A DNA stretch of 64,000 nucleotides. Origin: a virus. Of this stretch, positions 17,353-50,399 are shown piece by piece. Position numbers and translations under genes: made by a program. Where the stretch lies: positions 17,594-81,593 of IMG/VR virus record IMGVR_UViG_3300045988_100580. One strand, written 5' to 3'. Under the pieces are notes generated by a model. It ran no database searches. It was not told where the DNA came from and was given only the letters and a program-made list of their open reading frames with translations. Positions within the stretch are counted from its first letter, which is position 1; each line of letters opens with the position of its first letter.

Positions 17353-17788
17353 CTTATATATGCACGTATATCAATAACATACAAGAAAAGTTAGATTTTC
17401 ATTGTTTATGAATTATTTTTGTTAAGTTTGCAATATTAGTTTCAGGAAGGGATTATGGAAATAAGGAAAAAGTAAGAACCGAACGTAACTAATAACAGTA
17501 GGAAATGAGAATCAGTACCATCAAACGTAACAACAGCATTCATCTTATGTATAAAAACATTATGAATGATTTAGGTCAATTAAGAACTGTAGTTTCAAAA
17601 TCCTATATTTATAATCTGATACAAAATCAAACCGGATTAAGTATCATAACTATATCCCATGTACTTAACCATACCAAAGAACAGGATACGGATTCTTTGT
17701 GAAAAGCATGTATTTTCATACATTTGTTCGTTCTTTAGTTTTAGTGGGGAAAAGTTTTTCATGGTATTTTAGTTTAGATTAGTTGAGG

Positions 17789-30643: not shown

Positions 30644-30689
30644 CAACAATCCCCAACCGTACGCCTATTGTATGGTTGGGGATTGTTGT
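30643..30689. terminator. 16-bp perfect inverted repeat ACAACAATCCCCAACC / GGTTGGGGATTGTTGT with 15-nt loop, at the point where the two gene blocks converge
   Basis: Perfect 16-bp stem with a T-rich tail on the plus side (CATCTTTTCTT). Likely bidirectional terminator. Confidence 0.6.
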
Positions 30690-30732
30690 AGTTACCATCT
30701 TTTCTTGTATAAGCAGAACATGAAATAAGTTT

Positions 30733-32910: not shown

Positions 32911-33222
32911 TTAATCTGATAATTTTTCTATTTTAATTAATTTTGATGATAGATACATATTCCATTTCCCTCTGCCTTTGTCACCTTTTTCGTTTTGTTT
33001 TTGGATTGTCAAGTACAGATCTCCGTCTTCACATACTTCAACTTTTTTCAAGAAGCCTATCATTTCATCTCCTGCTTCGTGTAAAATACGGATCTTATCT
33101 CCTTCTTTTAACCCATAATTGGAATCAAAGTATTCTTTTTTGATTCTATCAATGTTGTCTTTATGGTTTTTTATAGCATAAAGCTCTTTTCTTAATAAAT
33201 AATTTAGTTGTTCTATTGTCAT
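32911..33222 (-). CDS. Hypothetical protein, 103 aa
   Basis: ORF track. Confidence 0.45.
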   Translation of the reverse strand: MTIEQLNYLLRKELYAIKNHKDNIDRIKKEYFDSNYGLKEGDKIRILHEAGDEMIGFLKKVEVCEDGDLYLTIQKQNEKGDKGRGKWNMYLSSKLIKIEKLSD

Positions 33223-33776
33223 TTCTTTTCCTCCTTATTTAATGGTATTAATCCTTTCCCGTGCTTATCATACCACAGCATAGCTATACAATTCCATGCA
33301 CATTGTGCAAGATGAAAAGCTCCTGTATCTGAGTCTATTCTTTCCCCTTTCATGTATTCCATTAGGTGTCTGGCAGCCGCAGCACGATACCGTTCAAACC
33401 CGTTGTCAAGGTTCTGCCATTTATTGGGTCCGTACTTCTTTGCGCCAGCATGATAGACTCTTACAATGTCTTCAATCTCTTCCATAGGAAGTAAATCCCA
33501 TCGTAGTTTGTCGTCTATGATGTCATTTTTCACCGATTTGTTTTCTATGGGGTCTTTGGTAAGAATAATACCCATAATATCCGTTTCTATAACGAACGTC
33601 TCCCCATTGCAACAAACCTCAGCATATTTATCATTTACTTCTATGTCTGATACTGCCTCCGCTATAGCTCCTTTGGCGACTTTAAATTCGGCACTGATTA
33701 TATCATCTTTCAATATGCGAAAAATAGATCCTTTTGGATAAAGGATATTTTTAGTATTATCATCCATCTTTTCCAT
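33219..33776 (-). CDS. dATP/dGTP pyrophosphohydrolase-like (MazG-like) protein
   Basis: Motif KKYGPNKWQN…FERYRAAAARHLMEYMKGERIDSDTGAFHLAQCAWNCIAML matches the phage dNTP diphosphohydrolase N-domain pattern (KYG..NW…RH…D.ESG..HLAH). Confidence 0.55.
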   Translation of the reverse strand: MEKMDDNTKNILYPKGSIFRILKDDIISAEFKVAKGAIAEAVSDIEVNDKYAEVCCNGETFVIETDIMGIILTKDPIENKSVKNDIIDDKLRWDLLPMEEIEDIVRVYHAGAKKYGPNKWQNLDNGFERYRAAAARHLMEYMKGERIDSDTGAFHLAQCAWNCIAMLWYDKHGKGLIPLNKEEKK

Positions 33777-44560: not shown

Positions 44561-45127
44561 CTATTTCAACCTGCCGTAACTCATATCAGGATCACACCAG
44601 ACATACCCGTCTTTCTCATCATGAAGATACTCAGGACATCCTCTACATGCGCTACTTCCTGACACTATTTGATTGTTTTTATTAGGGCACTTATCTCCAG
44701 GTTTATGCCATTCTATTTTTGAACCTGACCGTTCTTTGTTTATATAACAGAACTGAAATACTTTTCCCATCGTCTTCTCGCCAAACATACCTATATGCGT
44801 GTACTCTTCCGGTATAGATAGAAATTCAGATAAATCTTTATACATCCTTTCCCGTTCCTCCGGCGTAGACCATAATCTGTCAAGTTCGGCATGGACTCTT
44901 ATCTTAAGAGACCTCAGTGATGGCCCCGCAAGCCGGCCTTTAGCTTTTCCCTTATTCGGCCCTGATTCATGAACACCGACATAAGCGTTGCATGGTTTGC
45001 ACATCATAACCATCCCTAAGCCTTTTCTGCTATATATTTTATCGGCATTTACCAGCTCAGTTTCTCTTCCGCAATAAGGACAAATTTCGCCTCTTAAAAC
45101 CCGTTGTTGGCGCTCATTAAGTTCCAT
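44561..45127 (-). CDS. Zinc-finger protein, DUF3268-like
   Basis: CPYCG…MMCKPCNAYVGVHE…GRLAGPSLRSLKIRVHAELDRLW matches the DUF3268 pattern. Confidence 0.5.
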   Translation of the reverse strand: MELNERQQRVLRGEICPYCGRETELVNADKIYSRKGLGMVMMCKPCNAYVGVHESGPNKGKAKGRLAGPSLRSLKIRVHAELDRLWSTPEERERMYKDLSEFLSIPEEYTHIGMFGEKTMGKVFQFCYINKERSGSKIEWHKPGDKCPNKNNQIVSGSSACRGCPEYLHDEKDGYVWCDPDMSYGRLK

Positions 45128-48633: not shown

Positions 48634-48818
48634 TCGAATAATAATGATATTATTGAAAAGAACAATCCCGCTGAAGCCAGTAGATAAGGTACGTTCATTA
48701 ATAATTTAGATACCTCGTCTGTCTTAATCACTATCAGAAGGAAAGCGCCTGCTGAAAACAATGATATTATCGCCACAACAAGCGCTATGTTGGAAACTAC
48801 ATCAGCCTTACTCTTCAC
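48579..48818 (-). CDS. Small two-TM membrane protein, 79 aa
   Basis: Two hydrophobic helices. Confidence 0.4.
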   Translation of the reverse strand: MKSKADVVSNIALVVAIISLFSAGAFLLIVIKTDEVSKLLMNVPYLLASAGLFFSIISLLFEWKARKRSYTSANDADEK

Positions 48819-49305
48819 TCTTCTTCTCGCCTAATTTTTCAGCTCCCTTCTGAAGATCATATTTGAATACGTCAATGATCTTCGTTTCAGCAATAGCTTC
48901 GCAATTCCAGTCGCCTAACGTGCCCTGCATACCTTTAGTCAACACAGCTTCGGCATCCTTAGGATTGCCGGCCTGGACATACATATAGCATGGAGTTTTC
49001 TTTTCTTTACCTTTCTTTTCATCCAGTGTAATGTAATTTACCTTACACTTATACCAGTACTCAGCTTCTCCGTTGAAGAAGATTTCCGACACTTTAATAG
49101 GATTTATTTTAACAATGTCGAACACTTGAAATAAATCCTTGAAAATCTCTAAAGATCTTGATTCTGCCTCTGTATAAGATAAGGCATCTACCAAATACTT
49201 TTCAGTTACTTTCTTTTTTTTGCCGTTCTCGATATTATCAATCTCGGCTTTTACTGTGATTTCAAACCAACGATTCATGTCTATATTTTTATTCAAATTA
49301 ATCAA
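48808..49305 (-). CDS. DUF4494-like protein
   Basis: Pattern EAEYWYKCKVNYITLDEKKGKEKK…YMYVQAGNPKDAEA…DWNCEAIAETKIIDV resembles the DUF4494 family common in Bacteroidota phages. Confidence 0.4.
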   Translation of the reverse strand: MINLNKNIDMNRWFEITVKAEIDNIENGKKKKVTEKYLVDALSYTEAESRSLEIFKDLFQVFDIVKINPIKVSEIFFNGEAEYWYKCKVNYITLDEKKGKEKKTPCYMYVQAGNPKDAEAVLTKGMQGTLGDWNCEAIAETKIIDVFKYDLQKGAEKLGEKKSEE

Positions 49306-49730
49306 TCCATTTCCTTTTGTACCATAAAGCGTTTACACCTTGATAATTTCAATTTCTTGTATGTAATATCTCTTTGGTTTTTACCATCAATATCTCGAAT
49401 ATTAAAACTACCGGTTTTACGCCTTGCGAATATAAAATAATAACTGTTTTCAAACATAACCCTATCAAACAATCGGAAACAACACTTAGGCTAATAATCG
49501 GAATAGCTTTTGGCTATTATGCATAATACAATACAAATTGTTTATGATTTGTATGGGTTATGCATTATTCTCGATTATTCGTGGCCACGAAATACTTACA
49601 CCCCTCTAAGTGCGTCAGGGCTTCAATCATAGCTTCTTTTATCTCTTTTTCTTCCATTCTGTTTGTTTTTTTGGACAAAGATATGCCTTTTGATAATAAA
49701 AAAGATTCAAAATGATTTAATTTAGCTTAA
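49306..49730. promoter_or_regulatory. 425-bp noncoding island inside the leftward gene array, with a 14-bp perfect palindrome TTCGTGGCCACGAA (49579-49592) and several hairpins and direct repeats
   Basis: No ORF over 30 codons. Contains AATAGC/GCTATT and TACAAAT/ATTTGTA hairpins and a TTATGCAT(A/T)AT direct repeat. Confidence 0.45.
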
Positions 49731-50399
49731 TTACTGCTCTTTTGATTCGTCCGGTATAGGCATGTCAAACTTTTTTCTGATAAACGACTCTGTTTCTTCG
49801 TTGAATGGATAGGCCTCCTTGATAAAATTCATAGCTACCTCCATGTCACCGTCTGCTATATCTTTATACCTTTCAAAGATACCAACCAGGTCATTGTTGT
49901 ATGAACGTTCTTGTTTTATGTTGTACACGTATTTCAATACCCTGTCTTTGATTTCATTGGCTTTTTTCACAGTATCATTGAAAGAATTTATACTTTCCAA
50001 TTCTGGATCTTTGTTTTCCTTGTTTACCTTATCAAACTCTTCCTTGCTATATCCCGCTTCTCCTGTAATGGCTGGGCAAACACTTCCATTTATGATCCAA
50101 AACTGCTCATACGATCCTATCAGAAACTTTGATTCCATTTTAAATGCATTATATTTAATAAGCAAATTAGCCACCTCTGTTGCACCTTCTATGGTTCTAA
50201 AACCGATGCCGATATCTTTTAACATAAATACTGGAACTCCAGTTCTTGGATACACGACTTCTTTTTTGTTCTTTATATTCCAGTTTTTAGCTTCAATTGG
50301 AATACCTTTACCAGCAAGCTCTTTGTCTATATACAGATATATCTCTTTGCATGTCAATGACACAATCTCATCTCTGCTTAAATCAAAAACTGTTTTCAT
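49731..50399 (-). CDS. Hypothetical protein, 222 aa
   Basis: Protein-like composition. Preferred over the low-complexity opposite-strand ORF 49819..50421. Confidence 0.55.
   Translation of the reverse strand: MKTVFDLSRDEIVSLTCKEIYLYIDKELAGKGIPIEAKNWNIKNKKEVVYPRTGVPVFMLKDIGIGFRTIEGATEVANLLIKYNAFKMESKFLIGSYEQFWIINGSVCPAITGEAGYSKEEFDKVNKENKDPELESINSFNDTVKKANEIKDRVLKYVYNIKQERSYNNDLVGIFERYKDIADGDMEVAMNFIKEAYPFNEETESFIRKKFDMPIPDESKEQ

Follow-up and report, generated by a model that had tools for sequence, protein, structure and literature searches.

The locus considered here raises the question of why a hairpin-rich island carrying a perfect 14-bp palindrome interrupts a block of phage genes that are all encoded on the minus strand. 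The sequence analysed, referred to as the window, comprises 64,000 nucleotides (positions 17,594 to 81,593 of the IMG/VR virus record IMGVR_UViG_3300045988_100580), and the island lies in it between an upstream 222-aa ORF (49731-50399, minus strand) and a downstream DUF4494 gene (minus strand), which is followed by replication genes (primase/helicase and replication factor). An earlier note, based on the letters and a program-made ORF list, had described the island as a 425-bp gap free of ORFs. The gap exists, but its size is 452 bp (49279-49730) because the DUF4494 gene starts at the ATG at position 49278, as indicated by the annotation of phage csAssE-Sib and by a Pfam match that runs from residue 4; the alternative start at TTG 49305 was rejected on the same evidence. 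The program-made ORF at 48808-49305 begins DUF4494 at this TTG and overlaps the end of the element described below, and the island start previously placed at 49306 is an artefact of that ORF. The description as free of ORFs was only partly right: the gap contains two short minus-strand ORFs, one of 30 or 37 aa (49565-49657 or 49565-49678, depending on the start codon) and one of 51 or 56 aa (49302-49457 or 49302-49472). The first is what is left, at the 5′-end, of a conserved 86-aa gene that has been truncated, and the second is the C-terminus of an IscB protein. A direct reading of the region found the palindrome, both hairpins and the TTATGCAT(A/T)AT direct repeats, with the palindrome at 49578-49591 instead of 49579-49592.

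A tRNA scan of the window found none, and an Rfam search returned nothing at the gathering threshold and, at E <= 10 within 49200-49800, only chance snoRNA-like matches; HEARO was not matched even at E <= 10. Sigma-70 promoter matches were no more numerous than in shuffled sequences, and a terminator scan found none. The GC skew changes sign only once in the window, at approximately 30.5 kb, and has no inflection at 49.5 kb. This sole inflection coincides with the position (approximately 30650-30730) at which the coding strand switches from plus to minus in a convergent arrangement. Two other proteins encoded in the window were recorded: a 185-aa ORF at 33219-33776 (minus strand) with a dATP/dGTP diphosphohydrolase N-terminal domain (PF18909, 4.5e-26), and a DUF3268 zinc-finger protein at 44561-45127. 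Enzymes of the dATP/dGTP diphosphohydrolase type are associated with phages that substitute a canonical DNA base.

The identity of the island emerged from comparison with relatives. The sole matching phage in GenBank, csAssE-Sib (OR575929; 151 kb, human gut, 86% identity), has between the same two genes a 340-bp gap with an annotated 86-aa ORF, an arrangement termed here the empty allele. Among 80 IMG/VR loci retrieved with the DUF4494 protein (approximately 190 loci were fetched over all comparisons), about 59 are likewise empty, with a gap of approximately 340 bp and the 86-aa ORF (MKEEEKKIKEAM...CKYFVVTIVNEE...), 19 are occupied, with approximately 1.71 kb between the same two genes, and two (L004 and L006) carry a truncated tnpB instead. 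On the gene strand, the first 152 nt of the island are conserved in all alleles except L004 and L006, and the remainder aligns only to occupied alleles. Against the occupied allele L002, the island aligns in two blocks, L002 1292-1548 at 98% and L002 2799-3000 at 100%, and the 1,250 bp between them are lacking. The island is thus very probably a dead copy of a 1,552-bp IscB-omega RNA element of the OMEGA/ISC type (IS200/IS605 superfamily) that was gutted by a 1,250-bp deletion.

The parent element, as present in L002, consists of a HEARO/omega RNA and a 408-aa IscB, which is the only protein that it encodes. IscB is an RNA-guided nuclease ancestral to Cas9. HEARO is the omega RNA of IscB, and IscB elements are placed within the IS200/IS605 superfamily (Meers et al. 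2023; PMC13565253). The HEARO family RF02033 matches L002 at 1508-1700 with 113.1 bits, against a gathering score of 83, and lies 50 nt before the iscB ATG on the same strand. The 408-aa ORF (L002 1751-2977) contains RRXRR (PF14239, 3.4e-60) and HNH (PF01844, 4.3e-9) domains and matches solved IscB structures (OgeuIscB and others) with E values of 1e-42 to 1e-44, the chains 7UTN and 7XHT at 1e-42. Intact 408-aa copies were found 26 times among the fetched loci, in 22 distinct nucleotide sequences, with a median dN/dS of 0.09, and the IscB protein is therefore under purifying selection in this phage group. A search for a Y1 (HUH) TnpA transposase (Y1_Tnp) among the 20 window ORFs of 114-188 aa gave no match.

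The Rfam match begins 60 nt inside the DNA that is foreign to the phage, and a boundary at the start of this match (L002 1508) was rejected, as it left a 60-nt foreign segment unexplained. The true scaffold start is AATAATCG at L002 1449, a placement based on a Vibrio homolog, a second insertion locus and RNA folding. The sequence shared with the homolog of Vibrio olivae (79% amino-acid identity) begins exactly at L002 1449, and at this start AAUAAUCG pairs with CGAUUAUU, located just before the conserved AGCCUAAG, closing a three-way junction with one long and one short hairpin (z = -6.8). The same architecture is formed by different sequences in the Vibrio RNA and in a 75%-identical phage paralog, and L068 carries a compensatory change from G:C to A:U in the 5′-domain of the omega RNA. 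A 71-nt two-hairpin insertion is present in the first omega RNA stem. As single-stranded DNA, the omega RNA end of the element also folds strongly (z = -5.8); no far-end hairpin was detectable in the terminal 100 nt (z = +1.3) or in the Vibrio homolog. This homolog, on contig NZ_JBHMEP010000019 of Vibrio olivae CECT 8064 (L082; HEARO 88.9 bits), is the closest cellular one, and a marine Vibrio is an odd place to find it, given that the element is one of human-gut phages. Approximately 15 nt (TAACGCAAAAAGGA) occur on both sides of the Vibrio copy (L082 2190-2210 and 3740-3760), which resembles a target duplication; nothing of the kind is present at the phage loci. Further related sequences were observed: in some relatives, the 75%-identical IscB paralog, which lies approximately 6.6 kb away (L126 9152-10567) and again ends directly at an AATGGA start codon, and in others, isolated 172-nt copies of the omega RNA core (element positions 83-254) approximately 1.7 kb from the main element (L108 47-217 and L125 3803-3973).

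When the parent is mapped onto the window, every feature noticed previously finds a place. The 5′-domain of the omega RNA (element positions 1-100) occupies 49480-49579 on the minus strand, so that element positions 1-100 correspond to window 49579-49480, and it constitutes the right end in transposase terms. In it, the P1 helix AAUAAUCG/CGAUUAUU (minus strand) is formed by pairing of 49572-49579 with 49493-49500 and encloses both hairpins: the short hairpin AATAGC-TTTTG-GCTATT is at 49502-49518, the upper stem of the long hairpin (ATACAAAT-N8-ATTTGTAT) is at 49531-49554, and the TTATGCAT(A/T)AT repeats (49517-49527 and 49558-49568) form the lower stem of the long hairpin. This domain is identical to the 5′-part of intact elements at all 100 nt, and its 95-103-nt hairpin cluster is far more stable than shuffled sequences (z = -4.8 to -6.8). 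The retained 100 nt represent the complete 5′ three-way junction of an RNA of roughly 250-300 nt, which is recognisable as omega RNA only through the intact relatives because Rfam has no match on the window itself. The earlier suggestion of a small non-coding RNA was accordingly right in direction, the hairpins and repeats being the 5′-domain of the IscB guide RNA, although the RNA gene is truncated here.

The deletion junction lies at 49479/49480, with 1 nt of microhomology, and element positions 101-1350 (1,250 bp) are gone. Beyond it, element positions 1351-1552 (202 nt) correspond to window 49480-49279: residues 351-408 of IscB and the stop codon are found at 49302-49478 on the minus strand (residues at 49305-49478 by tblastn, with 100% identity to the 408-aa IscB of L002 over 58 aa), followed by the terminal 23 nt of the element (...TTAATTTGAATAAAAATATAGAC; 49279-49301, minus strand), which form the left end in transposase terms and abut the DUF4494 start codon. 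The remnant thus measures 301 bp and keeps both termini of the element, and neither an intact iscB ORF nor a complete omega RNA scaffold is present in the window. The 25-mer spanning the deletion junction was absent from IMG/VR and JGI metagenome contigs, which indicates a private allele or, conceivably, an assembly artefact.

On the other side of the scaffold boundary, the remnant of the small gene occupies 49565-49657 on the minus strand (30 aa when read from the ATG, 37 aa when read from the TTG at 49678) and ends with ...CKYFVATNNRE*, reading into the element. Identity to the relatives stops at the element boundary. In a large assembly collection, contigs from 29 blocks have a gene call for this same 30-aa product, and at each of the 10 places listed an IscB ORF adjoins it, of 408 aa in nine and interrupted early in L103. 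IscB elements take their guide from the sequence that flanks the RNA scaffold (Meers et al. 2023). By position, the 16 nt directly 5′ of the scaffold (GTATTTCGTGGCCACG; 49580-49595, minus strand) would correspond to this guide, the boundary being fixed by two independent insertion contexts; a guide function is moot in the window, since both scaffold and nuclease have been deleted.

The palindrome TTCGTGGCCACGAA straddles this same boundary, with 12 nt belonging to the coding sequence of the small gene (F-V-A-T) and 2 nt (AA) being the first of the omega RNA scaffold. It was made perfect by a 6-bp deletion (ATAGTA) abutting the scaffold boundary: among the IMG/VR loci, the most frequent occupied allele has the sequence GTGGCCACGATAGTA|AATAATCG, and the window has GTGGCCACG|AATAATCG. 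Empty alleles have no palindrome and read TTCGTAGCCACGAT, TTCGTGGCTACGAT or TTTGTGGTCACGAT at this site. Eight perfect 14-bp palindromes occur in the window, two of them inside the island, against 5.5 expected from first-order Markov simulations, so that a single one is not unusual. The same flank type, with the 6-bp deletion and the palindrome, is found beside a full-length element in L099 and L101-L107, seven of which encode an intact IscB of 408 aa and one of which (L103) has a stop after 19 codons; in L093 and L095 it accompanies another internal deletion. At its centre, the palindrome is polymorphic at synonymous codon positions (GTA/GTG, GCT/GCC) in both occupied and empty alleles, including alleles that share the junction of the window, and such variation is the signature of coding constraint and not of a protein-binding site.

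These data bear directly on the proposal of the earlier note that the island is a replication origin or a repressor/operator region centred on the palindrome. The island is AT-rich, structured and intergenic, lies beside replication genes and includes a conserved promoter-like block, all of which would suit such a function. However, the skew has no inflection at this position, the palindrome occurs once in the window even when two mismatches are allowed, and it is unconserved and variable at synonymous sites within coding sequence, approximately 85-105 nt downstream of the promoter-like box. Moreover, about three quarters of the sampled relatives lack the mobile element to which all of the structured sequence belongs. 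The note had itself held that a conserved short protein-coding gene in relatives, together with an unconserved palindrome, would speak against its reading, and both were found. We therefore give an origin or operator at the palindrome next to no credence.

A control function is plausible only for the promoter-like, 5′-leader block at 49656-49730 (minus strand), right after the stop codon of the 222-aa gene. It is near-invariant in the IMG/VR relatives (80 loci, L004 and L006 aside) and in csAssE-Sib, which is 78% identical here. Its TATCTTTG (49676-49683) fits the Bacteroidetes -7 consensus, TAnnTTTG, and a TTTG is located at 49708-49711; the spacing between the two, 24 nt, is longer than typical. 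The combination TTTG-N24-TATCTTTG occurs once in the window against 0.84 expected and is thus without statistical support, and CATATCTTTGTCC, considered as a repeated phage promoter motif, is not repeated in the window.

The mobility of the parent element is evident from a second locus, flanked on one side by a terminator hairpin and on the other by the ATG of a different phage gene (MGKFNKKDEG...), which is occupied in three relatives (L111, L114 and L129) and empty in 53 (L136-L188). The empty site reads ...GAAAACAACA|AATGGGAAAG and the occupied site ...AACAACA|AATAATCGAG...AATATAGAC|AATGGG, with no target duplication beyond an ambiguous AAT. L129 is on the same contig as L012, at which the DUF4494 locus is empty. 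The element family is therefore mobile and inserts next to a TAM without duplicating its target. In all four contexts, the right flank, (A)ATGR, is the start codon of the next gene, and in the window the ATGAA comprising the DUF4494 start codon and the following 2 nt appears in reverse complement as TTCAT (49274-49278, plus strand) at the position of the transposon-adjacent motif. Geobacillus IS elements have been reported to use TTCAT as their TAM (Meers et al. 2023). The natural TAM of the element is apparently (A)ATGR, i.e. start codons. RNA-guided, TAM-dependent cleavage by the parent IscB is predicted from the dN/dS of 0.09 and from the (A)ATGR beside the insertions, both of which are indirect indications.

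At the first locus, a constant right junction is accompanied by six different left junctions, all of which abut the scaffold start. In the upstream 186 nt of the empty allele, NATGR occurs exactly three times, and each occurrence coincides with the junction of a single occupied class (B2, L122 and B1, the guide of the B1 class being GTGGCCACGATAGTAA); the remaining three classes have lost 6, 9 and 25 bp, respectively, and do not lie at NATGR. An origin of all left junctions by transposase action alone was rejected, given that three of the six are not at this motif. All occupied alleles of the first locus read ...TATAGAC|ATGAATCG at the right junction (window 49276-49282), one A short of the ...TATAGACA|ATGAA predicted from the second locus, and the absence of this A from every copy speaks for one common origin, after which the left junctions changed. 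The site has also been occupied in another manner in L004 (2023-2901) and L006, where a truncated TnpB of 292 aa (OrfB_IS605, 8e-19; HTH_OrfB domain) is joined to the C-terminal half of the small 86-aa gene and the genes upstream are not those of the other relatives; the same spot has thus been struck by a second kind of OMEGA nuclease element.

It may be asked whether this allele series reflects an active RNA-guided homing element in the gut-phage population. Such an element would land on start codons by means of (A)ATGR and would then walk upstream through successive re-insertions at NATGR and tandem collapse, renewing its guide each time and generating a series of alleles anchored at the scaffold boundary; the 6-, 9- and 25-bp deletions would be possible scars of cleavage, by the element itself or by a transposase, at the boundary between guide and scaffold, and the window copy would be a burnt-out allele immune to homing. 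We regard this extended scenario as unlikely. An arms race, in which all surviving empty alleles would either mismatch the guide or have a mutated TAM, was also considered and dropped as unsupported, because 20 empty contigs carry GTGGCTACGATAGTAA followed by ATGAAG, an exact match to the guide variant of L044 with the ATGAA intact.

Decay of the element is recurrent. Six distinct internal deletions (the window, L092, L093/L095, L094, L114 and L125; that of L114, at the second locus, measures 228 bp) and four premature stops (L009, L033, L045 and L103) were found. The right breakpoints of three of the six deletions (the window, L093/L095 and L094) fall within 16 bp, at element positions 1339-1354, and those of the other three are at 480, 1046 and 1137. 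The cluster lies just upstream of a TAnnTTTG-like box, TATGTTTG (L002 2821-2828, equivalent to window 49451-49458). Selection for an outward promoter or leader and a structural hot spot are both candidate explanations for the clustering. In this neighbourhood, TTTCCGATTGTT at window 49468-49478 resembles ATTCCGATTATT, the 3′-strand of P1, at 49493-49503, the two copies being 25 nt apart.

If the clustered breakpoints reflect selection, the retained 200 bp may be under constraint and the remnant would not be entirely functionless. It could have been kept for regulation, with the last approximately 200 bp providing an outward promoter or leader from which DUF4494 and the replication genes are expressed, or with the 5′-domain of the RNA stabilising or attenuating the read-through transcript. 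An element that always inserts directly before a start codon must supply expression signals to the downstream gene, and in the large assembly collection, contigs from 27 blocks have a gene call for the 51-aa terminal ORF. No record of the 56-aa form starting at TTG was found. On the other hand, the promoter call is a matter of a short consensus, half of the right breakpoints lie elsewhere, and a structural hot spot could instead account for the cluster, given the resemblance of TTTCCGATTGTT to the P1 strand. Retention for regulation is accordingly judged improbable.

The termini of the remnant suggest a further alternative, namely a gene-less, non-autonomous transposon resembling the palindrome-associated transposable elements (PATEs) of the IS200/IS605 group, with both ends preserved and movable in trans by a TnpA of the host or of another element. 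Both termini (100 nt and 202 nt) are indeed retained, the family is demonstrably mobile, and PATEs related to IscB and TnpB have been described (Meers et al. 2023). However, the end sequence is present as a single copy in the 64-kb window, the exact junction is absent from IMG/VR and the JGI metagenomes, and the other decayed alleles do not keep the omega RNA end, only approximately 6 nt of which are left in L094. The lack of a detectable far-end hairpin, and of a Y1 transposase among the 20 window ORFs of suitable size, also speaks against such a transposon, which we consider highly improbable.

The favoured explanation, a dead IscB-omega RNA element, would involve the following steps. The element would have entered the genome of a human-gut phage of roughly 150 kb, within a block of genes and immediately before the DUF4494 start codon, disrupting the small 86-aa gene. 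In intact copies, the promoter-like block precedes the truncated small gene, of which the final 16 nt lie in the guide position; the omega RNA scaffold and then iscB come next, and all read in the direction of the phage genes. A 6-bp deletion beside the scaffold boundary, common to many relatives with intact IscB, would then have created the perfect palindrome, and a later deletion of 1,250 bp would have removed the omega RNA core together with IscB residues 1-350, so that the element retains only its final 202 bp and, in 100 nt, the 5′ three-way junction of the RNA. The remnant would presumably be transcribed through from the upstream promoter-like block, which would express DUF4494 and the replication genes downstream. 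This remnant would have neither nuclease nor guide function and would merely undergo read-through transcription, and the island is most likely non-functional; a residual RNA role of the surviving domain, which is intact and very stable, is possible.

The result removes a false lead, in that the window has no origin or operator here and every feature that attracted attention is accounted for. The island is an ordinary fossil of a known element type; of more interest, as a by-product, is the surrounding allele series, which comprises empty, intact and decayed alleles at one site and a second locus with clean empty and occupied pairs, all in a gut phage of the lytic type. Natural IscB series of this kind are scarce and could be used to infer the natural TAM and the turnover of guides, as well as to test OMEGA homing between co-infecting phages. 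The annotation of csAssE-like phages can also be improved, since the ORFs concerned are currently unannotated, hypothetical or called HNH endonucleases. A literature search found no paper on csAssE-Sib, on IscB in its phage group or on IscB in crAss-like phages.

Several known systems invite comparison. The free-standing Seg and Mob homing endonuclease genes of T4, known for intronless homing, are likewise nuclease cassettes that are present or absent between two conserved phage genes, with mosaic flanking markers and recurrent decay, the classic life cycle of a homing gene; in the present case, where homing is a proposal, the target would be set by a flank-derived RNA guide and not by a protein. 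PATEs share with the remnant a short length (here 301 bp), the absence of genes, both termini of a parent and a richness in hairpins, whereas the remnant is a single copy whose junction was not found elsewhere, and the unrelated breakpoints of the sibling decayed alleles are those expected of random deletion and not of a propagating derivative. IscB homologs were found in 31 phage records of GenBank, where HNH endonuclease is the usual annotation, so that an IscB element in a phage is not new in kind. These homologs, from Ralstonia phages, Staphylococcus Silviavirus, Clostridium phage c-st and human faecal phage contigs, belong to the same family (31-53% identity), but they are intact genes in other phage groups. 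The csAssE-Sib group is not represented among them, and its sole genome in GenBank has the empty allele.

The closest counterparts are the IscB-omega RNA (HEARO) elements, such as that of OgeuIscB and the ISGst IscB of Geobacillus (Meers et al. 2023). In contrast to these, the window copy is dead, being reduced to 100 nt of RNA and 58 codons, and its parent has a 71-nt two-hairpin insertion in the first stem and no detectable far-end hairpin, resides in a gut phage of the lytic type and sits exactly on start codons, with cleavage and TAM predicted from the sequence. In other respects, the parent conforms to the type: it encodes an RRXRR/RuvC and HNH protein, has the HEARO RNA directly upstream in the same orientation with the flank 5′ of the scaffold in the guide position, lacks a nearby tnpA, is oriented like the upstream gene, and is inserted without target duplication beside a motif whose reverse complement (TTCAT/YCAT) equals the Geobacillus TAM.
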